Shown: positions 4,943-60,845 of the stretch, one piece after another | Numbering within the stretch: position 1 is the stretch's first letter | How the letters are laid out: each line of letters opens with the position of its first letter | Assembly: GCA_044892505.1 (NCBI GenBank) | Contig: CM097882.1 | Span: 124,558,001-124,622,000, forward strand | Source of the DNA: Schmidtea nova | Taxonomy: Eukaryota | DNA length: 64,000 bases | Direction: 5' to 3' | Program-made: the position numbers and the translations under genes | Notes under the pieces: model-generated | The model's input: only the letters and a program-made list of their open reading frames with translations | Databases searched by the model: none | What the model was told of the DNA's origin: nothing

Positions 4943-7897
4943 GTGGAAAAAATTAAAAGAGCACGATCAGTATCAATAAAAAGACCCTATCAAATAACAA
5001 ACGATAAATACACCCAGAATACAAACAGTGAATCAAGCATCAAAGGAAACAGAGAAATTACAATAAACACCCAATTCTATCAAAAGACAACAAGAACAAG
5101 CATCGAAGATAACTCTAGGAAAAGCCAAGCACAAATTGAACAACCAGAAAAGTATACGGAGAATAAAACAACAAATTGGGAAACAAGAAACAGGGAAACA
5201 AGAAATAGGAAAATGAATATCGAAAGAAACGGAAATGAGTCAAATACACCAGCAACGTCAATAGCACAAAAGAGAAAAGAATATCGAGAAAGATTTCAAG
5301 GCGAACCATTCAACGGAGACGCTAGTAGATTAGAAACGTTTTTAAAAGAATTTGGTGTATTCGTCGAGGTATATAGATGGGATCCAGAAACAATAATCGG
5401 TCGAATCCCACTATACCTTAGAGACAGTGCGTTAGACTTGTACCTAGAAGCCCAAGGAGGAACCAAACCATTTAAAAATTGGGACGAAATAAAAGAATTC
5501 TTCCGACAAACATTCGGAATAAACAAAGTATTAAGCCAGGCATTCGATGATTTTTCAGCAAGAAGGCAGAGGAAGAACGAGTCAAATGCGGTATACGCAA
5601 GCGAACTAAGGAAATTATCCAAACTAGCATTCAACAGAGAAAACCCTATAAACGAAGAATTGATGACAGCAATATTTGTGCGAGGGTTGAGAAGGCCAGA
5701 TATTCGAGCTCAAGTGGGATGTAAAGGATGCCTAACAATTGACGATGCGCTAGAAATTGCAAATAGATATGAGTTACACATAGGAGTAAACGACATCAGA
5801 ATCGTAACAGTAACACCAAACGAATCGGAAGACGAAGGGAATCAAGTTAAGCCAAAGAAATCAAACCAAGGAACTGGGAACAGACAAACGAGGAAAGAAA
5901 ATAACGACGATAGAGGCAGCATCGAGAATAACCCCAGAAACAATAACACCCTGAACAACACCAAACAATGCCAAACATGTTGGAAATCCGGACATTCGAG
6001 TAGTGAGTGTTATAAAAATCAATTTTGCGAGAAGTGCAAGATGTGGGGACATTCTGAGAAAATATGTGGAATACGGGGATGCTATAGTTGTGGCAAATTA
6101 GGACATATAGCACGAAAATGTGGGACAAAAAATAATCTACAAGGAAACCAGCAGACCAATGGAAACGGAGTAAACAGCTATAATCAAAACAATAGTCTGA
6201 GTAACAACCCGAATGACAGAGAAATAAGACTAATGCAAGAAATCTTAAGGCTAAATGAGGTGATCAAAAAGAGGACAAGAATAACGCAACAACCAAAAAT
6301 CAACAAACTTACATTCATCGAACCAACACTAACAGAAGAAACACCACAAGAGAAACAACGTCGAGAATGGCTAGAGTTGCAATTAGATGAAGCAAGAATA
6401 GGAGAAGAACGTGGTAGCAAACTAAATGCGGATGAAGCTCGTATATTACAAGGAAGATTCCAAGAACGAAAGGAGCAATTTGAAGAAGTACTCAAACAGA
6501 TAACAGTCACAAGTGAAAAGGACGAATCCGCGAAATTCAAAGAAAATGGAAATGAACTAGCAAGAAAAATAGGGAGAATCAACATGATGACCAGTTGCCA
6601 ATCAGAACTACAAAAGCCAACAATCAAAGAAGCCCGTCAAGAAGAATTCACATGGAGTAAATTAGGAGGATTGCAGGCCTGTGACAACGAGGAACATTGC
6701 AGGAAGATAAAGAAAGAACTACTAAAAGCAGATATGTTGAAAATGGCGAATAGACGTAATAGTGCACAAAAGATAGAAGAATTATGGAAACAACAAGAAA
6801 AGAATAAACCAAGAATCAATATGCTAAGAAAAATAGAAACTAGGAATCAAACAGAACAGGACAGAAAAACCATAATTGAAAGCGAAATAATCGAAGAAAT
6901 GGGAAAGATAACAATAGATCAACTTGTCACGGGAAATAAACACAGCAAGCAGTCAGCAATAAACGATATGACAGAAGTCGAAAAGAGAAAAGAACAAACC
7001 AGAAACGCAGAAGGAAACAAAAATGAAAAGAAGGAAAAGAAAGGCCAACAAGAACTAAAAGAAGAGTATCTATACAAAAAGGACAAATGGTGTAAATGCT
7101 GCCAAAGACAAGGACACTTAGAAAGCAGCTGTTTCAAGAACAAAATATGTACCAAATGTGGAAGAAAAGGACATGGAAAGAAAGTTTGTGGTATTCAAGG
7201 ATGTTACAACTGTGGGAAAAAAGGACACATTTCAAGAAATTGCCGGAATCGCAAGAAACAACAGGAAAACCAAAATCAGCTGGACAAAATCAATAACAAA
7301 ATTATGTCAAAGACAACCAAAGAAACGAAGCAATACGAATTCATAAATAATAATAACAAACATGTAGAAGGATATTACGAAAATCAAATTGTTCAAAACG
7401 ATCACAAGAAGAAACGAAACAAAGTGACTCACGAGTATGTACAAATATGTTACCAATGCAGACAAAGAGGACATTTAGCATTCCAGTGTACCATAGCAAG
7501 GAATCAGGCGAAAATTAATCAAAACAACAAGGAATACGCAAATCAAGGAAAACAAAAGCAGTTGAGGAACATAAACAAATGGGAAAATAATAGAGTCCAC
7601 ATGTTGGAAAAGCAAGTAAACAATCTCAGTAGAATACAAAAAGTCTTGATGGAAGAAAATAAAAGTCAAGAGACACAATTTACTAATATGATGCGATTAG
7701 CTCTCATTTATCAACAAGAAATTATTATACAAAAAGAAATAATAACCAGATCTCAAAACCAACTAATGTCAGTAATTACTCGATTTAAAGAGAAGGAAAA
7801 TCGAAACTATCAAGAGTCGGCATCAGAATACGTCGAAATTGCAGAAATTGTAAAAGCTCTCACCGCTAACAATGAGGTGGTGAAGAGGGAAGTGTAG
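4943..7897 (+). CDS. gag: Retrotransposon gag-like polyprotein with 7 CCHC zinc knuckles and coiled-coil regions (likely ATG at 5213)
   Basis: Capsid-like segment (PFNGDASRLETFLKEF...QRKNESNAVYASELRKL...FVRGL) and seven CxxC-x4-H-x4-C motifs. Confidence 0.85.
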   Translation: MEKIKRARSVSIKRPYQITNDKYTQNTNSESSIKGNREITINTQFYQKTTRTSIEDNSRKSQAQIEQPEKYTENKTTNWETRNRETRNRKMNIERNGNESNTPATSIAQKRKEYRERFQGEPFNGDASRLETFLKEFGVFVEVYRWDPETIIGRIPLYLRDSALDLYLEAQGGTKPFKNWDEIKEFFRQTFGINKVLSQAFDDFSARRQRKNESNAVYASELRKLSKLAFNRENPINEELMTAIFVRGLRRPDIRAQVGCKGCLTIDDALEIANRYELHIGVNDIRIVTVTPNESEDEGNQVKPKKSNQGTGNRQTRKENNDDRGSIENNPRNNNTLNNTKQCQTCWKSGHSSSECYKNQFCEKCKMWGHSEKICGIRGCYSCGKLGHIARKCGTKNNLQGNQQTNGNGVNSYNQNNSLSNNPNDREIRLMQEILRLNEVIKKRTRITQQPKINKLTFIEPTLTEETPQEKQRREWLELQLDEARIGEERGSKLNADEARILQGRFQERKEQFEEVLKQITVTSEKDESAKFKENGNELARKIGRINMMTSCQSELQKPTIKEARQEEFTWSKLGGLQACDNEEHCRKIKKELLKADMLKMANRRNSAQKIEELWKQQEKNKPRINMLRKIETRNQTEQDRKTIIESEIIEEMGKITIDQLVTGNKHSKQSAINDMTEVEKRKEQTRNAEGNKNEKKEKKGQQELKEEYLYKKDKWCKCCQRQGHLESSCFKNKICTKCGRKGHGKKVCGIQGCYNCGKKGHISRNCRNRKKQQENQNQLDKINNKIMSKTTKETKQYEFINNNNKHVEGYYENQIVQNDHKKKRNKVTHEYVQICYQCRQRGHLAFQCTIARNQAKINQNNKEYANQGKQKQLRNINKWENNRVHMLEKQVNNLSRIQKVLMEENKSQETQFTNMMRLALIYQQEIIIQKEIITRSQNQLMSVITRFKEKENRNYQESASEYVEIAEIVKALTANNEVVKREV

Positions 7898-44606: not shown

Positions 44607-45413
44607 CTATTCCGTTTTATGGAAGTTGCAGGGCTTAGTGCATTTAAAAGCCTTTTCACCAAATTTGTATTGAAAATAGCAATGATTTTCATTTATTAAA
44701 TTGTTTCTCGCTTGTTTTTCTGGACTTTTGTCTCGATAATTATTGTATCTGTTTAGCGAGTTTGACCTGTTTATGTTGTATTGATTTGGTGAATGGTCTC
44801 TGTTGTAGTTTTGTCTGTTGTATCTTTCAGGAATTGAATTTGAATTGTTATTTTGCCTGTAGCATTTTTCTTTAATTTCGGCCAGTTCCGCTTTAATTTG
44901 TTTGTTTTCGACTATGATTTCATCAAATTTGCCTATTAGGGTGTTTAATAGTTTGTTCATGGTTTCATTTGTTTCGCTATATTTGTTGTTTGGTTGATTA
45001 TTGTAGTTTGTTTCGTTTTTGTTGTAGTTTTGGGTGCTGCAAGTAGTCGGATAAATTTCTTCGTTGATTTTATCCGCTATGTCAGCGAGTGTTTCGACAT
45101 CGGCGTTTTTGCTGGCAGCAAGGATCCGCCTGATTTCTGGTGGCATTGATCTCAAAAAGAATTTTTTAACTAGTTCATTTGAACCTGAGTTTGTGATATT
45201 TGGTTGCAAATATTCTTGTTTTTGTTTTAATTGTCTGAGGAAATCGGTGGGTTTATTGTCACCTAAGTGAGTGTTGTTGAGGCAAGATTCGAGCATTTGC
45301 CGTCTGTTTATTTTATTTTTGTTCGTCAGGATGTTGCACAGTTTGTTAAAGGGGTCGTCATCCTTAGAAATTTCTTCTATTTGGTCCGTAATTTCATTTA
45401 ATTTGTTACTGGA
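44607..45413 (-). pseudogene. gag: Gypsy gag, 3' part (continues from 61138-60846)
   Basis: Removing the Polinton and one TSD copy gives ...CSNIIAALSSNKLNEITDQIEE...; C-terminal CYFQYKFGEKAFKCTKPC motif. Confidence 0.85.
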
Positions 45414-45469
45414 AGTAGAGTAGGGGGAGCGCCCAAGAACAGGAACAGACCCCCCTCCCCCCAAAAAAA

Positions 45470-46268
45470 TTTTTTTTGTTTAAATGAAGTGAATTTTTTA
45501 AATTTTTTATTTTGTTTAAATGAAGTGAATTTTTGAATTTTATTTTTTTTGTTTAAATGAAGTCAATTTAATTTATTATTTTGTTTAAATGAAGTATTTA
45601 TTTTATTTTTATTTATTTATTTTTATTTATTTTTATTTATTTTTAATTTATTTTTAATTTATTTTAATTTATTTTAATTTATATTTATTTTTAATAATTT
45701 ATTTTTAGTTTATTTTTAATAATTTATTTTTATTAATTTATTTTTATTTATTTTTAGTTTATTTTTATTTATTTTTATTTTATTTTTATTTATATTTAAT
45801 AATTTATTTTAATAATTTATTTTAATAATTTATTTTTAATTTATTTTTAATTTGTTTTTAATAATTTATTTTTATATTTATTTTTAATTTAATTTTTAAT
45901 TTATATTTATTTATTTTAATTTATATTTAATAATTTATATTTAATAATTTATATTTATTTTTAATTTATTTAAATTTAAATTTATTTTTATATTTTCGGT
46001 TCAGTTTGAATAATAATAATTATNNNNNNNNNNNNNNNNNNNNNNNNNNNNNNNNNNNNNNNNNNNNNNNNNNNNNNNNNNNNNNNNNNNNNNNNNNNNN
46101 NNNNNNNNNNNNNNNNNNNNNNNNNNNNNNNNNNNNNNNNNNNNNNNNNNNNNNNNNNNNNNNNNNNNNNNNNNNNNNNNNNNNNNNNNNNNNNNNNNNN
46201 NNNNNNNNNNNNNNNNNNNNNNNNNNNNNNNNNNNNNNNNNNNNNNNNNNACTTAGAAAAATTTTTAA

Positions 46269-46313
<45 letters not shown>

Positions 46314-46480
46314 TATTATTATTATTAACTTAGAAAAAACTTTGAAAAATTTTTAAAATAATAATAATAAACTTTGAAAAAACTTAGAAAAATAATAATA
46401 ACTTAGAAAAAACTTTGAAAAATTATGAAATAAAGAACAACTAAATCACAAAACTTTGAAAAATTATGAAATAAAGAACA
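45470..46480. repeat. Left subterminal region: 4x TTTGTTTAAATGAAGT, an almost pure A/T tract, an N gap, (AAT)n and short repeats
   Basis: Seen directly in the sequence. Confidence 0.85.
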
Positions 46481-46499
46481 ACTAAATCACAAAACTTTA

Positions 46500-46885
46500 T
46501 TATAAATTATAAATGTCGTTATAATATGCTTTACGCATTTCTGACATTAAGATATGCACCGAATGATCTCTTTTAAAATCGTGACAGCATGCACATCCGT
46601 TTACACAGGATACTCTTAGTGAATCATTGCAAACTATGCAATTTTCAACGCACTTGACTCCAGCTCCTAGCACCATATCATAGTGAATCTCAAGTAATTG
46701 TTCGATATTGATCCCAGTAAGCTTGTATAGCTTATGAACCAATAACTCTGGTGCACAGTAATCCAAAGAATCTTTTATTTTTGGATATAATTCTTGAATT
46801 TTCTTCAGGATCACTTCAAATAAATAAGCTAAATAAAAAATATTAATAATATAGTTAATTAAAAATAATACTTACTTTTAGACAT
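46500..46885 (-). CDS. Cys/His-rich protein (112 aa), two exons (46885-46876, 46828-46500)
   Basis: ATG TCT AAA A|GTAAGT...TTTAG|CT TAT supplies an ATG and keeps the frame; CxxxCxxC...CxxxCxCCH...H..H. Confidence 0.75.
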
Positions 46886-46920
46886 TTTCAAAAATATGGA
46901 TTTGTAAAATAACAATGTAT

Positions 46921-47403
46921 TTAAACAAAATTAAATAATAAATCGAGATATTTTTCATCAATTAAATCATTATTGATTAATGAATTAATATAATTTTTAA
47001 TTTCATTTACTTGATTAAAATAATCCAATGTTTTAATTCCTAATATTACAACTTTTCCACTTGAAAAAATATTAATACAAATTGGGTTATAATTTATTAA
47101 TCTCAAAGCTGGAAATATTTTGGGTTCGTACCAGCACTCTGTTTTATTTTGCAATTCGTATAAATTTATGGATTTACCCATATCCAGTGTTATAGTGATC
47201 GATTGAATTTTTAAATCGGAAATTTTATATTTCAAATCATCTGGTTTTAACGGTTGCTTACATCCCATTACGCGACATTTTCCCGATCTGAAAAATAAAA
47301 TAGGGTACTTCCCGCTCCTATCTATAACTTGCTGAGGTTTCCCAACAGGAAATATCATGTTTGGAACTAAACACTTGCCCTTATAATTAATGTTACTTAT
47401 CAT
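46921..47403 (-). CDS. TATA-binding protein (TBP)-like protein, viral
   Basis: Two TBP-type repeats: ILFFRSGKCRVMGCK and DLKIQSIT...YEPKIFPALRL...INIFSSGKVVILGIK, versus TBP LIFSSGKMVCTGAK and DFKIQN...YEPELFPGL...LIFVSGKVVLTGAK. Confidence 0.85.
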   Translation of the reverse strand: MISNINYKGKCLVPNMIFPVGKPQQVIDRSGKYPILFFRSGKCRVMGCKQPLKPDDLKYKISDLKIQSITITLDMGKSINLYELQNKTECWYEPKIFPALRLINYNPICINIFSSGKVVILGIKTLDYFNQVNEIKNYINSLINNDLIDEKYLDLLFNFV

Positions 47404-47459
47404 TTTTATAAATTGAATAAATATAAACAATATTAAATTAATTAATTAATTAAATAAAA

Positions 47460-48083
47460 ATGGAATTAAGAAATGATGCAGTTTATCAAATAGTGGGCCC
47501 GAGTGGTAGTGGAAAAACATTATTTGTATGTAAATTGTTGCAATCAAAAATGTTTAAATCTAAATTCAATAAAATTTACTGGCATAGAGGAGCTGATGAA
47601 GAACATGGACTGACTCAAGATCAATTCTATAAATTAAAAATGACAATTATAAAAGGGTTTGATAAAAACTGGTCATCTAGATTACGACAAGGCGATGTTA
47701 TAATTATCGATGATTTGTACCAAGAAGCAAATAAAGAAAAAGATTTTAATAATTTATTCACAAAAATTAGTAGACATTTAGGAGTTACTGTAGTTTTCAT
47801 TACTCAAAATTTATTTCATCAAGGTGGTAGTCACAGAACTCGTAATTTAAATGTTCAATACTTGGTTATATTCAAAAACCCAAGAGATGCTACAATTATT
47901 GATTTTCTAGCAAGACAAGCTTACCCTAATGATCGGAAATTCTTAATTAATTCATTTCAAGATGCTACTAAAGTTCCTCATGGATATTTATTCTTTGATT
48001 TTACTCAACAATGTCCTGACGATTTACGTATCCGAACGGATATATTTAACGAAAAAGGAGTCACGGTTTATAAACAAAATTGA
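47460..48083 (+). CDS. A32/FtsK-like genome packaging ATPase
   Basis: Walker A GPSGSGKT, Walker B VIIIDD, ISRHLGVTVVFITQNLF. Confidence 0.93.
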   Translation: MELRNDAVYQIVGPSGSGKTLFVCKLLQSKMFKSKFNKIYWHRGADEEHGLTQDQFYKLKMTIIKGFDKNWSSRLRQGDVIIIDDLYQEANKEKDFNNLFTKISRHLGVTVVFITQNLFHQGGSHRTRNLNVQYLVIFKNPRDATIIDFLARQAYPNDRKFLINSFQDATKVPHGYLFFDFTQQCPDDLRIRTDIFNEKGVTVYKQN

Positions 48084-48104
48084 AAACAAATAAATGAAAT
48101 AATA

Positions 48105-48266
48105 ATGTCATTTAAAAAAGTAATTGTCAAGTTAAATAAAGAAGCTGTTCAAAAAGCTGATCAAAAACTACTTAAAAAAGTTGATCAAAAATCTAAATTA
48201 GTTAAAAAAGTTGTCAAAAAGGTTGGTAAAAAAAAGAAACAAGTAAAGAAGTGGATAAAATTATAA
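48105..48266 (+). CDS. 53-aa lysine-rich small protein (candidate DNA-condensing core protein)
   Basis: MSFKKVIVKLNKEAVQKADQKLLKKVDQKSKLVKKVVKKVGKKKKQVKKWIKL; 21 of 53 residues are Lys; fills the gap in a compact gene cluster. Confidence 0.7.
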   Translation: MSFKKVIVKLNKEAVQKADQKLLKKVDQKSKLVKKVVKKVGKKKKQVKKWIKL

Positions 48267-48296
48267 ACGAAATAAATATATACAAAAATCTTAATC

Positions 48297-48626
48297 ATGA
48301 AATTTGAACGTAGTTTACCGTATTTTAATGCTTTGGTTAAAGCTCCAACAAATAAGCGAATGATAATTTTACAAGCTTTCCCACCCTTTGTTATTGATGA
48401 TTTACTTGAAATCGTTTTTAATATTGTTCATGGTAATGTAAATATTAGTAGATCAAAGAAAATTGAACTACAAAAACATAAAAATTCACTTTTTTCATTA
48501 GTAAATACCAAAAATAGAAATCTTATGCGAAAAATAATATATAAACAAAAGGGTGGGTTTCTCGGTACATTAATTCCAATAGTATTATCAGCAATAAGCG
48601 CAATCTCATCTTTAAGAAATGGGTAA
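48297..48626 (+). CDS. Conserved small Polinton protein with an adenovirus pX-like C-terminus
   Basis: EIVFNIVHGNV core and QKGG|FLGTLIPIVLSAISAI, resembling adenovirus pX MRGG|ILPLLIPLIAAAIGAV. Confidence 0.7.
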   Translation: MKFERSLPYFNALVKAPTNKRMIILQAFPPFVIDDLLEIVFNIVHGNVNISRSKKIELQKHKNSLFSLVNTKNRNLMRKIIYKQKGGFLGTLIPIVLSAISAISSLRNG

Positions 48627-48688
48627 TAAAATTTCTGAACCGAATAAACATAATATAGATTTAAATATTTTAACAAATTGTTGTATTA

Positions 48689-49777
48689 ATGAAGAAAATC
48701 ATGAAGAATATAAAAACGATATGGACAAACCCAAAAGATCCCGATGGTTTTGGTTCAGTCAAAAAATTGGTAAAAAGAATAAAAAGTTCAAAGAATGAAA
48801 CTCAGAAATGGTTATCTGATCAATTGGCATATAGTTTAAATAAACCAATGTTGAAAAGATTTCCTACACGGAAATATAAAACTTTTGGGGGTAACGATTT
48901 ATGGTAAATGGATTTGATGGAAATGATTCCTTATTCTAAAATTAACAAGGGTTACAAATATATTTTGACTTGTATTGATGTTTTTAGCCGTTATGCACGA
49001 GCTATTCCAACAAAAACTAAATCTGCTAATGAAATGGCTGAGACTATTGAATCTTTATTTAAAGATGGGAAGCCACGTAATTTACAAACTGATTTGGGTA
49101 AGAAATGAAATTAAATTATTTAATTATTTATTTTTAATTTAGGAAAAGAGTTTTATAACAGCAAAGTAAAAGAAGTGATCAAAGGAATCAATCATTATTC
49201 TGTATTTTCTCAATTCAAAGCTGCTCATGTTGAAAGATTAATTCGTACTTTAAGAGATCGTTTGAAAAAGTATTTTGTGTATCAAGGTAACAAAACATGG
49301 ATAAGTGTTTTACCGAAAATTATTTTCAGTTACAATCGTTCACCGCATTCGGGATTAAATAAAATGAAACCTATCGATGTATATTCAAATAATAATTTTG
49401 ACGGATGGATAAAAGATAGATTAAAATCAATTAATAAAAAACCGAAATATAAAGTAGGTGATTATGTGAGAATGAGTAAAATCAGTGCTTCTCTCTTCAT
49501 CAAAAATTTTGATAGTAATATGAGTGATGAAGTATATCAAATCTCAAATGTTGATACTAATCAAAATCCTGTCATGTATACTATTTCCGATCATGAAAAC
49601 AATGTAATCGAAGGGAAATTCTACGAACAAGAACTTCAAGTTATTCCAGCTCCCACAGTTTTTAGAATTCAAAAGATTTTAAAAACCAAAACTGATGGGA
49701 AATATAAACAATATTACGTTAAATGGCATGGCTATGAAACTCCAAGTTGGATATCTGAAAAACAATTGATTAAATAA
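48689..49777 (+). pseudogene. int: Retroviral-type (rve) integrase with C-terminal chromodomain; one intron (49098-49142) and one premature TAA (48905-48907)
   Basis: DDE motifs W*MDLM, LQTDLG|KEF and HVERLIRTL; chromodomain YYVKWHGY...SWI; splicing GTAAG...TTTAG restores DLGKEFYN. Confidence 0.92.
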
Positions 49778-49782
49778 ATATT

Positions 49783-50820
49783 ATGAAAGAAAACCAGTTT
49801 TATATGATTTTGCCTAGCAATGCATGTCCTCTTATTTATCCTAATAATGAAGCTAGTAATTTTAATGTAGAATTTCAAAATCCGATTTATTTAAATAGTA
49901 ATGACGATTGGGAAGTTGCTTTGATTGATTTTACTTTTGTGTATAATTTATTTCCGTATTATAGTAATTCTTTTATTCAAATTGAAACTAAAAGAGAAAT
50001 TCAAGAAATTAGTTATTTGAGAATTAATAATCAAAATAAAACAATTCAAGTTATAGTTTCTCAACCTAGTTCAGACACTGATGTATTTATTGAAAAATAT
50101 AATTATTTAGTGATTGTTTGCCCACATGTTCCATTTAAAAGTACATTTCCAGATCTTGAACATGCAAAAAGTTTTGGATTGGAAAATATATCAATTACAA
50201 GTGAAAATGATCATTGTCGTTTAAAATTACCAAAATTCACGAATGATAATAGTCTTGAACAATTTGGAATTTTAATAAATTATGACATTAAAACTGTTAA
50301 TGATTATTATTTTCAAGATGAATTATTCATAACGTCATTACCGGAATTACAAGGATATTTAATGAAAATTAATCCATGGCCATTTAAAGAATTGAAACTT
50401 GTCAATAATGAATTGGTTAAAATTATTCTTCAGGATAATATTTCAAAAATTACTTTTGATTCAAATTTAACCAAATCTCTGGGTCTACAGAAACAAACAT
50501 ATACTGATACAGAAATAATTGGTGTAAAAATCCCCAAAATTTTACAACTTCATCAGCAAATGTTCATTTACAGCAACATTATTGAACCAGTAACTGTTGG
50601 AGATGTACGAGTTCCCCTCCTTAAATCAATTTGGATCAAGAAATATGACCAAGGTGAAGTTGTACAAATTGAAATAAAGAATCCAATGTATTTGCCGATT
50701 TCAACATCAACTATAAACAACATTGAAATCAATATTCGTGATGACAGTGGAAAATTAATTAAATTTTCAAAAGATACAAAGACTCATTTGACTCTACATT
50801 TTCGTAAAATAAATGATTAA
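49783..50820 (+). CDS. Minor capsid (penton-like) protein 1
   Basis: FYMILPSN...WEVAL...FIYSNIIEPVTVGDVRVPLL...NNIEINIRDDSG...LTLHFR. Confidence 0.88.
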   Translation: MKENQFYMILPSNACPLIYPNNEASNFNVEFQNPIYLNSNDDWEVALIDFTFVYNLFPYYSNSFIQIETKREIQEISYLRINNQNKTIQVIVSQPSSDTDVFIEKYNYLVIVCPHVPFKSTFPDLEHAKSFGLENISITSENDHCRLKLPKFTNDNSLEQFGILINYDIKTVNDYYFQDELFITSLPELQGYLMKINPWPFKELKLVNNELVKIILQDNISKITFDSNLTKSLGLQKQTYTDTEIIGVKIPKILQLHQQMFIYSNIIEPVTVGDVRVPLLKSIWIKKYDQGEVVQIEIKNPMYLPISTSTINNIEINIRDDSGKLIKFSKDTKTHLTLHFRKIND

Positions 50821-51838
50821 AAAAGATTTTTATGTTAATTTACCAGGCAATTCTTGTCCATTGACACATCCCAATAATAAAGCTGGAAAATTCAATGTTG
50901 AATATCAAAACCCAATTTATTTGGATGGTAGTTGGGAAGTTGCTCTTATGGATTTTACTTTTGTATACAATGAATTTCCATTTTATAATAGTTCAAGTAT
51001 AAAATTTATTAGAAATGAATTACATTCTAGTTATGAATATTTCAATTTTAACCAACAAAAGAAAGAATATGATATAAGTCACGATTCTAATTATTATTTA
51101 ATGTATATTGATGGTAATATTTTAAATGTAAATTGTAAATATTTTCCATTTCAAATAATATTTGATAGTGTTGATGAAGCTAAAAAAAAATTAGGGTTTC
51201 AAGAAAAAGCTGTGACATTTAATGATGAATTAAACAAAATTAAAATTCCAGCAAATGAAAATAAAAAACTTGATGATACTATACGATTTACTATAACTTA
51301 TACTTTTCCTGTTGAATACACAGATAATTTCAAAGACGATTTAATAATAAATAATCTTGCTGAATTATCTGATCAAATTGAAACTTTTTATCCACATCCA
51401 TTTAAAGTGATTGATATTAAAGAAGGAAAATTAATCAAATTAATTCTTGAAGATGATATAACTAGTGTAAAATTTAGTAGGAATTTAGCAAATTCATTAG
51501 GATTAGTTGAACAAGAATTCTTTGACAAAATTATTGATGGCGTATATTATCCACAAGTTTTAAAACTTCATCAACAAATGTTCATCTATACGAATATTAT
51601 TCAACCAATTCTTGTTGGTGACATGTCAGTTCCCCTATTGAAATGTGTTTGGGTTGAAAAACATGAAAAGGGTGATTTGGTTCAAATTGTTGAGAAAAAT
51701 CCAATGTATTTTCCGGTCAGTTCCACATATATAAACAATATTGAAATCAATATTCGTGATGACAGTGGAAAAATAGTTAAATTTGCAAAAGAAGACAAAA
51801 CTTACTTGACATTACATTTCCGTAAAATAAATGAATAA
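50813..51838 (+). CDS. Minor capsid (penton-like) protein 2, tandem paralog
   Basis: Same N- and C-terminal motifs as 49783-50820 with a divergent middle. Confidence 0.88.
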   Translation: MIKKDFYVNLPGNSCPLTHPNNKAGKFNVEYQNPIYLDGSWEVALMDFTFVYNEFPFYNSSSIKFIRNELHSSYEYFNFNQQKKEYDISHDSNYYLMYIDGNILNVNCKYFPFQIIFDSVDEAKKKLGFQEKAVTFNDELNKIKIPANENKKLDDTIRFTITYTFPVEYTDNFKDDLIINNLAELSDQIETFYPHPFKVIDIKEGKLIKLILEDDITSVKFSRNLANSLGLVEQEFFDKIIDGVYYPQVLKLHQQMFIYTNIIQPILVGDMSVPLLKCVWVEKHEKGDLVQIVEKNPMYFPVSSTYINNIEINIRDDSGKIVKFAKEDKTYLTLHFRKINE

Positions 51839-52238
51839 TCCAGATATTATCAGTTTATATAGCAACAGCCAATCAGGTGGAGAATTACCGTATTTTGTAG
51901 GTAAGCAATATGGAACTGGATGGTTGAAAACGATAGGTAGATTTGCATTACCAATTCTTAGACGTATTGGAAATTTTGGTATGAAAACTGCCAATGATGT
52001 GTTAAATAATAATTCAAAGATTTTACCTGCACTAAAATCCAATGCTATTTCTGAAATTAAAGATTCATTGCCCGATGTGATTCATCATTTGCCACAAGTA
52101 ATTAGTAAAGTAACTGATGTGTTTAACGAAAATAAAACTGAAAATAAACAAAATGGCGGAATTCTTAAACGTAAAAGAAATATGAAGAAACATATAAACA
52201 AAAGAATGAAAGGATATGGTACAATTTTTGAAAAATGA
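51831..52238 (+). CDS. Small Polinton core/membrane-active candidate protein (PZ-like)
   Basis: QSGG and QYGTG motifs followed by the amphipathic WLKTIGRFALPILRRIG; basic C-terminus with QNGG and KGYG. Confidence 0.65.
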   Translation: MNNPDIISLYSNSQSGGELPYFVGKQYGTGWLKTIGRFALPILRRIGNFGMKTANDVLNNNSKILPALKSNAISEIKDSLPDVIHHLPQVISKVTDVFNENKTENKQNGGILKRKRNMKKHINKRMKGYGTIFEK

Positions 52239-53461
52239 TTAGTGCAAAATCTGAATTATGTCTTTTTGATAGACCATCTCCTCAAGCAGTAATTGAACAT
52301 GGTGCATTTGAAGATATTTACCCAACAAATTCAATTACAGATGCTGGGACATCATCTATTCAATTTTACATCAACGGATCTCAAACTGAATATTTAGATT
52401 TGAACGATACTTTACTATCTCTTCAGGTCAAAGTTGTAAACAAATCGGGTGAAAATTTAGGATTGGATGCTGATGTTACTCCCAACAATTTCTTTTTCCA
52501 AACTCTTTTTAAAGAAGCAGAATTAATTTTCAATTCTACTAAAGTTGAAGGGGGAAATGATACATTTACACACAAAGCCATGATTGAAACTATTCTCAAC
52601 TACAATAGTGATACAAAACACACATCTTTAACTCCAATAGGATACAATGACCATGATCTTACTAGAAAAGCATGGATTGCAAAATCAAAACCATTTTCAA
52701 TTTGTTCTCCATTACATTTCGATTTCATGGAACAACCCAAATATTTATTACCAGGTGTTAGTGTTCAAATTAAATTGACGAGATCAAATCCATCCAATAG
52801 TTTGACAAGCACAAAAATTGAACCTATAATTGAATTATTAGACGCAAAATTAATGGTTAGAAGAGTTCGAGTAGAACCATCAGTTTATGCTGGGCATCAA
52901 ATTGGACTTGGTACAAGAAATGCAATTTATCCAATAAGAAATAAGGAAGTTGTAGAATTTTCATTGCCAATGGGTTCTTCTTCGTTTTATAAGGAACAAA
53001 TCTTTGGCGATAGACGATTACCAAACTTTATTCTTGTAGCATTTCAAGGAAATAAAAGACATAGTGGTTCTTTTACTGAAACATATTCTATTTACGATTA
53101 TTTTAATGTCAAATCATTAACTTTATCGAAAGGAAGTGATTATCGTGAAAAATATTCTCAAGATTTTGAAAATGATAATTGTAGTACTAGTTATATGCAA
53201 TCTATTGTCCGTAACCTTGGTTACCTGAATAAGAGTATGAATTGTGGTATTTCTTTATCAGATTGGAAAAGCAAATATCCTTTTTTCACCTTCGTTTTGG
53301 CTCCAGATTTTGACCTAAATCAAAGTCAATTACCTCAACAAGGTAATCTAAGACTTGATATTAAATTTGGTACACCATTGACTGAATCAGTTTCTGTAAT
53401 TGTATATGGAGTTTTTGAAAAGGAATTACAAATTACAGCTAATAGAACAATATTGATTTAA
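52235..53461 (+). CDS. Double jelly-roll major capsid protein (PY)
   Basis: KSELCLFD...IQFYI...YLDLNDTLL...LHFDFMEQPKYLLPGVSVQIKL...GNLRLDIKFG...VIVYGVFE pattern and 408-aa length typical of Polinton MCP. Confidence 0.9.
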   Translation: MISAKSELCLFDRPSPQAVIEHGAFEDIYPTNSITDAGTSSIQFYINGSQTEYLDLNDTLLSLQVKVVNKSGENLGLDADVTPNNFFFQTLFKEAELIFNSTKVEGGNDTFTHKAMIETILNYNSDTKHTSLTPIGYNDHDLTRKAWIAKSKPFSICSPLHFDFMEQPKYLLPGVSVQIKLTRSNPSNSLTSTKIEPIIELLDAKLMVRRVRVEPSVYAGHQIGLGTRNAIYPIRNKEVVEFSLPMGSSSFYKEQIFGDRRLPNFILVAFQGNKRHSGSFTETYSIYDYFNVKSLTLSKGSDYREKYSQDFENDNCSTSYMQSIVRNLGYLNKSMNCGISLSDWKSKYPFFTFVLAPDFDLNQSQLPQQGNLRLDIKFGTPLTESVSVIVYGVFEKELQITANRTILI

Positions 53462-53512
53462 TTGAAAATTATTGGTTTAATATAAACTAATTTTAATAAA
53501 TTAATAAAGTAA

Positions 53513-53891
53513 ATGAAGTAAGATTTATTTTAAATAATTAAATTTTATTGATTTTAGTTCAATTCAGGTAGATCAGATTGCTAGAAAATTGATTGGATCG
53601 GAATTTCTAGGAGTTTTTCCTCTAGATAAAATACCGTATATAGATGTGAATAAAGCATTGATTGTCAATACTCAAACATCAAATCTCAAAGGCGAACATT
53701 GGCTTGCAATTTATAATAAACCCGATAAAATATACGTGTTTGATCCAATGGGATTTTATTATCCACCGATATTATTGAAAAAATTATCGTCAATGTTAAA
53801 ACCAATAGAATATAACAGAATTCGATATCAAAATCCTATGACAAAAACCTGTGGGCAACATTGTTTAGCTTGGCTAAAATATATGAAATAA
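53513..53891 (+). CDS. Adenain-like cysteine protease (112 aa), two exons (intron 53518-53557)
   Basis: ATG AA|GTAAG...TTTTAG|T TCA gives MNSIQVDQIARKLIGSEFLGVFP; catalytic GEHW, FDPMG, YQN and TCGQHC intact. Confidence 0.92.
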
Positions 53892-54004
53892 AATTTTTTA
53901 TTATAAAACGACTTTTATTATAAAACGACTTTTTCTATTTTTGGTATTCACTAATACAAAAGTGAATTTTTATGTTTGAATTTGTTAAATTATAGTTGAA
54001 AATA

Positions 54005-54665
54005 ATTTTAATATTGTAAAATATTAAATTAATTTTAAATTACATATTGTAAAATATTTAATTAATTTTAAATTACATATTGTAAAATATTTAATTAATT
54101 TTAAATTACATATTGTAAAATATTTAATTAATTTTAAATTACATATTGTAAAATATTTAATTTTAAATTACATATTGTAAAATATTTAAATTAAATTATA
54201 TTTAAAATAATTTCGTTTAAATAAACAACATTTTTAACAACAAGCCAACTTAAGTAAGTAAGTTTAATTTTTTATGAATATTTTTTAATTTTTTCATTAC
54301 AGATTTTTGAAATTATGCCAAACATTATTATGCCAATGAAATTTTCAAAGAAAATTATACCAAACAATGTTATACCAAACAATATTATGCCAAACAATGT
54401 TATGCCAATGAAATTTTCAAAGAAAATTATACCATCGATACTTCATGTTAAATGTAAGTATTTATATATTGACGAAATATATTATTATCAATTAAATGTT
54501 TATTTTTATAATTGATAGATTTTTATATGAATTTAATTAATTTTTATAATTGATAGATTTTTATATGAATTTAATTAATTTTTTATAATTGATAGATTTT
54601 TATATGAATTTAATTAATAATCGATAGATTTTTATATGGATTTAATTAATTTTTATAATAAATAT
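54005..54665. repeat. Internal non-coding spacer with 33-bp (about 6x), 15-bp-based and 38-bp (about 4x) tandem repeats
   Basis: ATATTGTAAAATATTTAATTAATTTTAAATTAC at 54011, 54044 and onward; ATTGATAGATTTTTATATGAATTTAATTAA at 54511, 54549 and onward. Confidence 0.9.
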
Positions 54666-54887
54666 ATTTTATAAATGATATATTTATATATTATTTTTAA
54701 AATATATTTAATGTAAATAAGAAAAAATCAATTAAAGAACAAATAAATTAAACAAGAGTTTATTCATGAAAATCATTAATTTTCCAAATAGGTTTTATCA
54801 CGTTTTCGGTTTGTTTAAATCCTTGTAAGATAATTTGAATTTGATACATTGAATTTTCATCTAATTTGCCTAAATCTGTTTCTTTTT

Positions 54888-55290
54888 TTACAGTTCATAT
54901 ATGTGAATTCCTCGTTGAATTGAATGTTCTTTATTTATTAGCATTAAAATTTCTGATAGATTCTTTCTATCAATTTCCCCGATTTTTCCAACCTGAATAT
55001 TGTATTGACATTGTTTCAATGTAACAGGTTCCTGTAAATAATATTAATTAGATTTTTATAATTTTTTAATTATTTACTTTGAATGAATATTTGATCGGAT
55101 ATTTCAAATACTCCATCGAGTATTGTAGAAATTGAACTGGTGGATTCAATGCCAAATTAGATGAAGAAATAGGATTTTCCTCAAGTATAATCTTCATTAT
55201 TTCTTGTTTTGTCATTCTTTTCGATTCTAGAAAAATAAATTAAAAAATAATCATTTAAAATTAATTAATCTTACTTTTAAGTTGATACAT
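54888..55290 (-). CDS. Hidden three-exon Polinton gene (102 aa, unknown function)
   Basis: Exons 55290-55275, 55226-55078 and 55031-54888 joined by 48- and 46-nt GT-AG introns give one open frame starting at ATG. Confidence 0.65.
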
Positions 55291-55573
55291 TTTTTAATGA
55301 TTATTTTAATTTTATAGGTCGTTTATATAGAAATTTTTAAATTATTTTGACCAATCATAATCAATAAATATATATTACGATATTTTGAAATGAATGTGTG
55401 TATACACACTTGATATACATCATTGATATTTTATCTTAATTTTTATCTTAATTTTTATCTTAATTTTTATCATTATTTTTATCATTATTTTTATATTATT
55501 TTTAAAATTTATAGGCAATTTATATCAAAAATATTGCAACTCCACAATTCATGATGTAAAATGCCATGAATTA

Positions 55574-58500
55574 ATGGAAAGATATTATGCATACCCTCAT
55601 AACTGTAAAACCTCCTACATTTGTCCTTTTTGCAAATCTACTTCGTCCTCTTCGTATATTGACTTTTACAATACTCATTGCGATCATTTAGATCAATTTA
55701 AAACATCTAAAAAATCAATTTTTAAATTACCGCTTAAAAGAAAATGTAATGAAAATAATTCAATCCCAATCAAAATTAACAAGTCAGATCTTACTGATGA
55801 TATTTCTTCAGTTGATCCTTCAGTTGTTCCTTCAGTTGATCCTTCAGATATAGTTGTAATTTCTGATGATGATGATGATGACATTCTTGGTAATGATACC
55901 ATTCCTGATGATAACATTCTTGATAATGATACCATTCCTGATGATGATAACATTCTTGATAATGATACCATTCTTGATGATAACATTCTTGATATAAATA
56001 TTCTTTCTGATTTTGTGGTTGTAGACACTTTTGATCCTATCGATAATATTCAAATTGGTGGTTCTTTTGATAAAATTTGTGACGATAAATACTCTTTAGT
56101 TCCTGAAGTACAGGTTGGTGGCTCCATTTTACCTGTTGTTAAATTTGATTTAAATAAATCACATGCTATAATGAAAATGATTGTAACTAACTTGAATTTA
56201 AAAAGCATGTTTGTACCTGATAATTTAATTAATAAATTAAATAATGTAATTGAAACGATGGGAACGGTTAAAATTCAATTTTGCATCGAAGTTGAGTTTG
56301 AAAAAGATGGTGCTTTTCAAACTATAGTTATTTCTAACTCTGCACAACCTGTCACAGATACCTTTATAGACGATGGCATTAATATTCTTAACGAAAAAAT
56401 TACATTAATTAATAATAGAGGTAGTAACTGGATAATTAATAAAATTAATGAAATCCATTTCATATTAACAAAATTTTCTGAGATTAGTAAGTTAATAGGT
56501 TACGGTGGTATTGACACTCCTGAATCTTTAAAGTCAAAACATTGTGTTGCAAATGTTCAGAATTCTGATGACTTGTGCTTTATATATTCTGTTTTAGTAA
56601 TTATTAAATATGATGAGATATCTGGTCGTAAAAATAAACATAGGATCAGTAATTACAATCTTTCAGATGTTAACTTTAGTCCTTCTGATTTGCCTATGCG
56701 TCTTTGCAATATCCCAAAGTTTGAAGCTAAAAACCCGGGATATGCGATTAATGTACTTTCATATGATGAATCTGGAATTCTAGACACTAAGCCTGAAGTT
56801 TTCAAACATCCGTGTATTGACATAATTCATAGGTCGAAAGTAGTAGACGGAATTCCTATTAACTTGATTCTTTTGCAAAATGGTGACTCTTTTCATTATA
56901 TAGCAGTAACCAATCTTGATAGGCTTTTAAATCTTGACAATAAATCAATATCTGGTACTCGTATTCAAAGTTTATGGTGCCATCGATGCTTGAATGGGTT
57001 TAGATATCAAGATTCTTTTGTTCGTCATCAAGAGTTGTGTTCTAAAAATCAATTAGGCACAACTCTATATACTTTGCCTAAAAATCCTTATTTGACATTT
57101 AGTAATTGGGGCAAAACAATTACTCCACCTTTTGTAGTTTACGCCGATTTTGAGGCAATCTTACCTGCTGATGATAAGTACTTTCAAAGACATGTCCCAA
57201 TATCTGCCGGTCTTTTACTTGTAAATAATTTCACTGGTGAAAAGATTTACAAGAGTTTCTTAGGTCTTGATTGCGTTACTAATTTTCTTGCTGAAATTAA
57301 CAATATAGGTGAAGAAATTGTTTTTCCTTTTTATAAAAACAATTACAAAAAACCACTTATTATGACATTCGATAATAAAAGATCTTTTGCCTCATCTACT
57401 AATTGTTATCTTTGTAAAAATCGTTTAGTTAATCCGGTTAGAGACCATGATCACTACACTGGTGAATTCTTGGGAGCTGCTTGTTTAAAATGTAATCTTA
57501 CTAGACAGATTCGTAAGGAACTACCGGTTATTTTTCATAATTTAAAAGGGTATGACATGCACCATATTCTTAAATATGGTTTGGCTAATTTTTCAACTTG
57601 GAAAATATCATGTATTCCAACAACTAGTGAAAAATTCCTTACTTTGTCTGCAAGAGTCGGCGATTTAACAATTAAATTCATCGATTCTTGTCAATTTATT
57701 AACTCCAGTTTAAATGATGCGGTTAAAACATTGACTTCATTACCTTTGACTAGATCTGAATTCACCGGGACTATTGTTGACTGTAAGGGTATTTTTCCTT
57801 ATGATTTTGCAACATCTTTAGAAATTCTTAACAACACTTATGAATTACCACCAATCTGGGAGGGTGTTAAGCAGGCTGAATATGACAAGGCATTAGTTAT
57901 TTGGAGGGAATCCCAGTGTCACACTCTGTGTGACTATATGATGGTCTACCTTAAACTGGATGTTTTTCTTCTTGCTGATTTCTTTCAACAGTTTAGGGCT
58001 AAATCTATAGCTCACAATAAACTTGAGCCTTTGAATTTTTTGGGGATTCCAGGTATGTCGTGGGCTTCTGCGCTTATTACCTTGGATGAACCTATTGAGT
58101 TGCTCCAGGATATGGAGATTTATAATTTTTTCGAAGGGGGGATCCGTGGTGGTTTGACATTTGTCAACAAGCACCATGTAGTATCCTCCGAAACGACTGA
58201 ACTTTTATACATTGACATAAATAATTTATACGGGTGGGCTTTAAGTCAAAAATTACCTTATGGTGAATTTAAATGGATCACTGATGAGAATAAATTAAAT
58301 AAATAAATTAAATTAATGGATACTGATTTGGCTATTTTGACTTATGGCGTGACTTTTGAAGTGGATCTTGAAATACCTTCAGAAATTCACGAAAAATTAA
58401 ATGATTTTCCGGTAGCAGCAGAGAAAATGTGTGCTCCGGGTTCAAAGGTTGAGAAGTTAATGCTGACGCATTATCCAAAGTTCAACTATGTTGTTCATTG

Positions 58501-59521
58501 GAGGCTTCTCAAGCTTTTTGTTTCTTTGGGTGTTAAAATAACACGAGTTCATCGGGCTGTTCAGTACAATCAGAAACCCATTTTTAAAAAATATATAGAT
58601 ACAAACACTGAACTTAGGGCAGCATCTTCTACAGCTTTAGATAAAAACTATTACAAACTCTTGAATAATAGTCTTTATGGAAAAACGGTTGAAAATCTTA
58701 AGAAACGACTCAATTTACGACTATGTAATTCACCATCAAAACTGATTACATATACTTCAAAACCTACCTTTAGAAAAACTTATAGAATTGACGATGACCT
58801 AGTTTCTGTCTTACTTAATAAGGACTCTGTGTGTTTAGATAGACCCAGTTACATTGGCCAAACTGTACTGGATTTATCTAAACTTAGGATGTATCAACTG
58901 CAGTATGAAGAATTACAAAAATATCGTAATGAATTCAACTGCGAAATTAACATCGTTGCTGGTGACACCGATTCATTTTTTCTTGAGATTAGAAATTGTA
59001 GGTTAGATGTTCTGTTACCTGCGAGGATAAGAGATAACTTACTTGACACTTCTAATTATGATCCGAATCACCCATTATACAGTAAGAACCTAGATTCCGT
59101 CATTGGTAAATTCAAAGACGAGAATAAAGGATTCAAGTATGATGAGTGGGTATTCCTTAGACCAAAGTGTTATAGTCTTTTAGGCGATGAAGAGTGCATT
59201 AAGGCTAAGGGTATAACATTGAAGGATACTAAACTGAATCATCAGTCGTATCTGGATTGTTATAATAATAATTCAATAGTTTCTGTTGATCAGTCGAGAA
59301 TAGTTAGTAAGAATCACCAACTCTTTACTAATAAATATTCGAAAATTGCCTTGACTAATCTTGATGATAAAAGACTTTGGGTTGATAAAAATGAAAGTCT
59401 TGCATACGGACATTATAAGGGATGTGGCTCGTTTATAGACCAATCAAAAGATCAGGTTGGTGTTCCAGTTTCAGATCCAGCTCTCAATTCAAATTATATA
59501 TCCAATTCAGATTTGTATTGA
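55574..59521 (+). pseudogene. polB: Protein-primed family B DNA polymerase (terminal protein, OTU-like, exonuclease with endonuclease VII-like insert, polymerase); one in-frame TAA at 58304-58306
   Basis: VYADFE, FHNLKGYD, YLKLDV, DHDHYTG...CLKCN, YIDINNLY, KLLNNSLYGK, AGDTDS, LRPKCY; both ORFs lie in the same frame. Confidence 0.95.
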
Positions 59522-60014
59522 ATAAAACTTTGTTAAAAAATAATTGGTTTCATTATATTTAGTTTTATATTTCTTTAGACTGTTATGTTTAATTGTTTTT
59601 AAAAATTTTATGTGTTATCCAGATTTGAATTGGTTTTATCGTTCAGGGTTTTCACCGATTAGTGTAATATTTTAAGGATTTGTGTAATTCGTTTTTATTT
59701 ATTGTAAAAATAATTGTTTTTGTTTACAAATATTAATAAATTTCATCTGTTCTTGCAGTTGCACTCTGTTGAATCGTCTTTAAAATTTTGACTATTGTCA
59801 CAATTCTCGAATTAATTCCATCTGTTTTCATAGTTGCCACATTCGATTTTCTAAAGTTATCAGTTAAAAAACAATTACTCAAAATGTTAGCCAGTACATT
59901 CAAACAAAAATTTCATTTAATTAAGTAAAGAACATGTTTTCGTTTGTGGTACGGATAATAATTAATATGTTGTGTATTTTGACGCTACCAACAGTAGTCA
60001 TGGGGGTTACACAA

Positions 60015-60801: not shown

Positions 60802-60845
60802 TTGAAAAAAGTGGGGCTGTGCGCTCACTTTCCCCTACTACTGGA

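Follow-up and report, generated by a model that had tools for sequence, protein, structure and literature searches.

Predicted short spliceosomal-type introns in core genes of an endogenous Polinton/Maverick of Schmidtea nova

Polintons, or Mavericks, of vertebrates carry genes for an integrase, a protein-primed polymerase, an ATPase, a protease and a capsid, and have terminal inverted repeats and a 6-base-pair (bp) target duplication. No introns are described in the genes of intact vertebrate elements (Barreat and Katzourakis 2021, PMC8097293), and in nematode Mavericks the core genes are intronless, with introns present in captured cargo (Widen et al., 10.1101/2022.07.12.499685). An element of this type is found in Schmidtea nova within a stretch of 64,000 nucleotides (nt) of contig CM097882.1 (assembly GCA_044892505.1, positions 124,558,001 to 124,622,000, forward strand), referred to below as the window. 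It resembles the vertebrate elements in the features listed above, and the nematode elements in having the same core gene set and introns inside the element. It differs from the vertebrate elements in its conserved, predicted core-gene introns and its TATA-binding-protein-like gene, and from the nematode elements in that the predicted introns are in the integrase, the protease and probably the polymerase.

Spliceosomal-type introns are also present inside Polinton-like proviruses of dinoflagellates (PMC12166617). These introners, however, form repeated mobile families and are mostly acquired after integration, whereas the window introns are dissimilar to one another and appear to be inherited with the element. 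Punuivirus, an endogenous virus of Chlamydomonas, is likewise an integrated DNA virus with host-type spliceosomal introns (10.64898/2026.10.09.758095), but it is a giant virus with introns averaging 176 bp in 61 of 506 genes and checked with RNA; the element described here is 15 kilobases (kb) long and its 37-54 nt introns are predicted from sequence alone. Ginger1 DNA transposons have integrase-type transposase genes with one to four introns at conserved positions, although they are cut-and-paste elements without polymerase or capsid (PMC2836005). Text searches of PMC12220804, 10.1101/2023.08.22.554363, PMC8502044, PMC11296320, PMC11244446 and PMC13594981 returned no spliceosomal introns in Polinton core genes. 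More generally, a literature search that did not extend to subscription papers, supplements and Repbase found no report of spliceosomal introns conserved in the core genes of animal Polintons; supplements and Repbase entries may already annotate such exons. Splicing is routine in nuclear DNA viruses such as adenoviruses, which limits the surprise.

Five short GT-AG segments interrupt four genes of the window element. At their fixed sites they are probably ordinary introns of an endogenous Polinton, removed constitutively by the major spliceosome of the host. The interrupted genes and the segments are as follows.

46500..46885, minus strand: gene X, function not assigned, two exons (46885-46876 and 46828-46500)
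46829..46875, minus strand: predicted intron 1, 47 nt, phase 1, codon 4 of gene X
48689..49777, plus strand: integrase with chromodomain, two exons (PF00665, E value 3.6e-6); premature stop at 48905-48907
49098..49142, plus strand: predicted intron 2, 45 nt, phase 1, within the integrase core
53513..53891, plus strand: adenovirus-type cysteine protease, two exons, 53513-53517 and 53558-53891 (PF00770, E value 2.6e-5, above the cut-off)
53518..53557, plus strand: predicted intron 3, 40 nt, phase 2, codon 2 of the protease
54764..55290, minus strand: gene Y, function not assigned, three exons; last exon frameshifted in the window copy, left end approximate
55032..55077, minus strand: predicted intron 4, 46 nt, phase 0, gene Y
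55227..55274, minus strand: predicted intron 5, 48 nt, phase 1, codon 6 of gene Y

A preliminary description of this DNA had reported the five segments, and their ends and lengths are as given there: each starts with GT and ends with TAG or CAG. Its further observation that four begin with GTAAG and that all are nearly pure A/T is also correct; each has four or five G+C residues, and the exception at 55077-55032 begins with GTAAA. Three of the five read on the minus strand (46875-46829, 55077-55032 and 55274-55227). Seven GTAA donors that open an AT-rich GT-AG segment of 36-60 nt are found between 46300 and 59600, two of them being alternative donors of a single segment; 100 block shuffles gave 0.8 on average and 4 at most. 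The GT and AG ends, a host-like donor and a pyrimidine-rich acceptor are those of U2-type introns. A motif resembling a branch point occurs in four of the five window introns and in 46 of 62 distinct introns (shuffled mean 31, maximum 42), although the 62 sequences are related to one another.

Spliced alignment of uninterrupted database proteins, made blind to the claimed introns, provides a test of the boundaries of introns 2, 3 and 4. The integrase intron at 49098-49142 was returned exactly by all eight integrases aligned, the gene Y intron at 55077-55032 by both homologs, and the protease intron at 53518-53557 by four of eight proteases, with three others giving no intron call and one a different acceptor. 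Removal of these three segments thus restores colinearity with uninterrupted homologs. The database proteins may themselves derive from RNA, and three of them (P0001, P0003 and P0028) begin past the integrase junction and carry no information on intron state. Integrase homologs number 133, many of them with PF00665. Contigs from four sequencing runs span all 30 bins of 46450-53950, a region that has introns 4 and 5 outside it; they are DNA-like and uninformative on splicing, and among 15 joints listed of the 155 in them, none matches an intron.

Conservation of intron position in related Polintons, which the preliminary description had put forward as a check, is found for the protease and integrase introns. 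Among 39 close copies of the element, GT and AG are retained in all 168 intron copies (35/35, 39/39, 34/34, 30/30 and 30/30 covering copies for introns 1 to 5), while lengths and interiors vary. The protease intron lies directly after the ATG and two further nucleotides in 105 of 115 matches, which span families with protein identities as low as about 50%. All in-genome families sampled have it, as do two metagenome lineages (L076 and L077/L084) that are 50-55% identical; it is absent from the distant metagenome loci L081, L083, L089 and L090. The ten misses comprise four near copies with a changed start or splice base, two partial or shifted matches and four distant intron-free metagenome loci. 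A sequence pattern for this intron has 9,202 matches in the genome and none in the control, and the intron measures 37-41 nt among the 100 matches listed, though the pattern allowed 30-53 nt.

The integrase intron is found at the same split glycine codon in eight subfamilies. As it is 42-45 nt long there, it mostly breaks the reading frame. One copy has a changed acceptor and one further, degraded match is 33 nt long. The corresponding pattern has 5,703 genome matches and no control match, with lengths of 40-48 nt among the 100 matches listed. Neither family C nor any metagenome locus that shows the site has the intron. A stricter pattern for the uninterrupted integrase has 154 genome matches, and none of the window type is present among the 100 listed. 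The gene X intron, in phase 1, has the same acceptor site in 7/7 other loci tested and is missing from subfamily A2. In gene Y of A2 the second intron (intron 4) is kept, and the first (intron 5) is not seen at its site. A search of IMG/VR returned no relatives.

Between families, the intron interiors barely exceed shuffled identity (0.67 versus 0.63, and 0.66 versus 0.61). Fixed ends and positions with free interiors are what selection for splicing would be predicted to leave. A different origin to be considered is that the segments are AT-rich insertions or introner-type mobile inserts, either unspliced or added after integration. AT-rich expansions do occur nearby in the element, the window copy is decayed, and the introners of dinoflagellate Polinton-like elements are mostly post-integration (PMC12166617). 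This origin is nevertheless very improbable, given an identical site and identical ends in thousands of copies and across families, and frame-breaking segments in a family with identical recent copies. Six window introns compared with one another share no sequence beyond composition (identities of 0.55-0.78 against a shuffled median of 0.62 and 95th percentile of 0.72); the mark of introners, similar intron sequence at unrelated sites, is not seen in this comparison, which was of the six window introns and not of host introns genome-wide.

The history of the integrase intron can be followed in a tree of the second integrase exon. Of its 27 rows, seven that bear the intron and two of unread state are on one side of a branch with support of 96/92, and the intron requires one change in 95% of 200 bootstrap trees. 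A quick tree of 88 rows gives the same split a support of 88. With the midpoint root, the simplest reading of these trees is a single gain.

Introns of the host were sampled by prediction in two gene families. Of 93 introns called by spliced alignment in myosin loci, 58 are 100 nt or shorter, with a median of 52 nt, a G+C content of 23% and a GTAAG donor in 6/58; short calls of 30 and 36 nt look like artefacts, and the rest start at 43 nt. Chaperonin loci gave 16 short calls of 44-55 nt, and an intron-length mode of 57 nt has been reported for a planarian (PMC4978528). The element introns are 37-48 nt long, as compared with 43-68 nt for most host calls, and have G+C medians of 7% and 11% and GTAAG in 56 of 62 distinct sequences. 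From these predictions, they lie at or under the short edge of the short class of the host. The preliminary description had assigned them to the minimal intron class of the host; their size is indeed near that of the short class, but they are shorter and more AT-rich than the host introns sampled.

Three of the introns lie within the first six codons of their genes (codons 4, 2 and 6), as first noted in the preliminary description. That these genes are untranslatable unless spliced, with intron removal supplying the only ATG, is overstated for gene Y, whose second exon has its own ATG at codon 4. An unspliced protease reads two codons and then a stop in 121 of 122 matches. The next ATG is at residue 64 of exon 2, past the catalytic histidine of this family. 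Since the unspliced protease stops and the integrase introns mostly break the frame, splicing would be required for both enzymes in the intron-bearing lineage. In a sister family bearing both introns, at least 35 copies show no difference over 1.1 kb, from which a recent multiplication of intron-bearing elements can be deduced; this multiplication in turn implies that splicing does take place. The identical copies are only an indirect sign of present-day mobility.

The two-codon protease suggests a further possibility, that the segments are true introns acting as a regulatory gate, as in the expression switch put forward in the preliminary description. In such a scheme, retention would give a two-codon protease or a truncated integrase, and the state of the host or small-RNA control would time maturation or integration. 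The third intron of the P element offers a parallel. The introns are found in enzyme genes and in two small genes, and none is present in the capsid, ATPase and TATA-binding-protein-like open reading frames (ORFs) of the window copy, a distribution that a gate might produce. Stem-cell-specific intron retention in a planarian (PMC4978528) and control of planarian Polintons by PIWI-interacting RNA (PMC8532177) have been reported, and the latency genes of punuivirus are enriched in introns (10.64898/2026.10.09.758095). However, the stop is an automatic outcome of a GTAAG donor in phase 2, and the donors are stronger than those of the host, as the GTAAG counts above indicate, which suits constitutive splicing. 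The interiors are unconserved and some of the introns are missing from relatives. A gate is thus unlikely.

Further introns are predicted at the front of the polymerase gene, in the following arrangement.

54258..54302, plus strand: a further likely intron of 45 nt, located before the ATG at 54315, with 54254 as alternative donor; same arrangement with a different interior in two subfamilies
54315..54453, plus strand: predicted front exon of the polymerase, short, coding and of low complexity
54454..55514, plus strand: predicted long intron, 1,061 nt, phase 1, joining the front exon to the polymerase; gene Y lies inside, antisense
55515..59521, plus strand: protein-primed DNA polymerase B, main exon (PF03175, E value 8.4e-9 on 58316-59518); in-frame stop at 58304-58306

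Conservation of the polymerase frame extends upstream of the first ATG, and in 44/44 loci a phase-1 AG precedes the frame at a single position. A phase-1 donor that closes an open frame of at least 40 codons is present 362-1,247 nt upstream in 39/44 loci, as compared with 1 and 2 for phases 0 and 2; the filter behind this count was chosen after inspection of the data, and most of the loci are family A copies. A relaxed survey gives phase-1 donors in 34/44 loci, together with many candidates in phases 0 and 2. Joining the exons would make the split codon a cysteine, a residue also found near the start of an intron-free relative. A long polymerase intron at 54454-55514 that holds the antisense gene Y is thus likely on comparative grounds. 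Sister families show two or three further short phase-1 introns in the polymerase front exons. Among full-length database proteins, none matched the front of the polymerase. A short intron immediately before the polymerase was considered and dropped, as no conserved in-phase donor is present. Quite unlikely is the full combination of a Polinton lineage in which protease, integrase and polymerase all depend on splicing, the 37-48 nt introns are below host size, the polymerase is assembled from upstream exons over a kilobase intron with an antisense gene inside it, and a gate between transposon and virion is set by retention of the protease intron in codon 2.

Three of the five window introns, and the two newly found, are at the 5′ end of their genes. 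Such positions are in keeping with another proposal, raised in part by the preliminary description as silencing escape, namely that the introns became fixed for their likeness to host messenger RNA, either through higher output or through evasion of surveillance of intronless RNA. Host-like recognition of intron-bearing genes has been proposed for punuivirus (10.64898/2026.10.09.758095). The intron-bearing integrase type also outnumbers the uninterrupted type by pattern (5,703 versus 154), but the two patterns differ in stringency and the count sets one lineage against another. The capsid and ATPase genes need high output and yet are intron-free. This proposal is possible but doubtful.

Constitutive splicing of rarely gained, locked-in introns appears to fit the observations best. 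In this mechanism, integrated copies of the element would be the templates for host RNA polymerase II, with recognition of each short intron across its own length. Gains would have been rare events in a parent element that was multiplying, each intron being copied along thereafter, and not insertions into dead copies. Once present an intron would persist, in that only exact removal is tolerated and an element that copies as DNA has no reverse-transcription step to delete it. Selection may maintain strong ends and keep the length close to the minimum that can be spliced, as unspliced protease or integrase messages could not yield enzyme; start-proximal introns may aid expression as well.

Several observations weigh against this reading. 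Of 74 host calls, all but 2 are longer than the protease intron, and efficient splicing at 37-41 nt is an assumption. Half of the proteases (4/8) failed to return the claimed boundary, and the test with uninterrupted homologs reaches introns 2, 3 and 4 only, not introns 1 and 5. The copies counted above are not independent, the 39 being the top matches to the window and some protease loci having been counted twice. The integrase tree is built on 212 columns and 27 hand-selected rows; it is rooted at the midpoint and its bootstrap had not settled. The genome also contains a family whose integrase is open and uninterrupted, and subfamily A2 is without introns 1 and 5 at the window sites; the integrase intron and introns 1 and 5 are therefore dispensable. 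Intact relatives that lack the segments, which the preliminary description had regarded as evidence against introns, thus do exist in part: there are relatives with an uninterrupted integrase, one of them an in-genome family with open frames, so that the lineage as a whole can do without the integrase intron. The presence of spliceosomal-type introns in core genes of a virus-like element is supported by the comparisons of sequence.

The element is an endogenous Polinton/Maverick in an AT-rich animal genome of 1.25 gigabases. Its remaining features are the following.

45408..45413, plus strand: 6-bp sequence resembling a target-site duplication, repeated at 60840-60845
45414..59590, no strand assigned: Polinton/Maverick copy, family A; left terminal repeat from 45414, right repeat missing, right boundary approximate
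46921..47403, minus strand: TATA-binding-protein-like gene, intron-free (PF00352, E value 1.3e-16)
47460..48083, plus strand: A32-type packaging ATPase, intron-free (PF04665, E value 1.5e-6, above the cut-off)
48297..48626, plus strand: protein with adenovirus protein-X-like motif, intron-free (PF05829, E value 1.1e-5)
49783..51838, plus strand: two paralogous ORFs (345 and 341 amino acids), intron-free; minor-capsid-like by position only
52235..53461, plus strand: major capsid protein, double jelly-roll fold by predicted structure, intron-free, ORF of 408 amino acids

The model of the capsid ORF has a predicted local distance difference test (pLDDT) score of 73.5, and Foldseek matches it to iridovirus, PBCV-1, Sputnik and mavirus capsids with E values of 1e-15 to 1e-13. 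The two paralogous ORFs have no Pfam or PHROGs match, and their minor-capsid label is our presumption from position. In family A these two ORFs, of 341-345 amino acids, are in tandem, and families B, C and D have one at the same place. Genes X and Y have no Pfam, PHROGs or usable Atlas match. A role of gene Y as a binder of single-stranded DNA was considered and is unsupported, the family model being too poor for a structure search (pLDDT 43). Most in-genome families retain the TATA-binding-protein-like gene, as do the metagenome loci L075, L076 and L081; such genes are listed for related viruses in a figure legend of PMC8502044. Directly 3′ of the protease, sister families have a conserved ORF of about 135-150 amino acids (L095:7620-8087 and L076:9590-10050), which family A is without.

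The window copy is decayed, with stops in the integrase and polymerase, a frameshift in gene Y and no right repeat. Unlike in this copy, the first integrase exon is open over 141 codons in 35 of 40 copies, and the polymerase site at 58304 is open in four of seven other copies that show it. The break at 58304 was also considered as an intron, which is ruled out by the absence of GT-AG ends. A right terminal repeat is found in 4/10 other copies, and exact 6-bp target duplications in 2/10. Between 59420 and 60845 the window copy runs into the end of a different element, and one and the same sequence of 6 bp is found beside each of the two outer ends, as if a chimera whose ends differ had integrated as a unit. 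Gag-like retroelement ORFs are present at 5213-7897 (plus strand) and 44607-45296 (minus strand), and the Polinton appears to be inserted in one such element.

By pattern counts, loci of this Polinton group in the genome number at least 9,200 for the protease and 5,800 for the integrase, a very large load for one animal genome. In the stretches examined (L103-L111), most of family C is arranged as inverted pairs spaced by about 7 kb; the integrase is intron-free, and no intact polymerase lies next to it. A fragment from the C-terminal part of a chaperonin (CCT), profile positions 347-488, is present in dozens of copies, often paired about 4.6 kb apart, which suggests capture by a repeat.

If intact Mavericks are defined by uninterrupted ORFs, a survey would count intron-bearing elements as dead: to a gene finder the integrase is truncated and the protease lacks a start. 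In this genome, however, intron-bearing Polintons appear to be the dominant type, with thousands of copies, and to have multiplied recently. The family provides an intron gain that could be dated, with sisters lacking the intron in the same genome, and its thousands of natural intron variants may bound the shortest intron that the host can splice. The conserved splice sites are evidence, at the level of sequence, for nuclear transcription of the Polinton protease, integrase and polymerase and for selection on them. Nuclear transcription under selection would bear on whether animal Polintons make virions.

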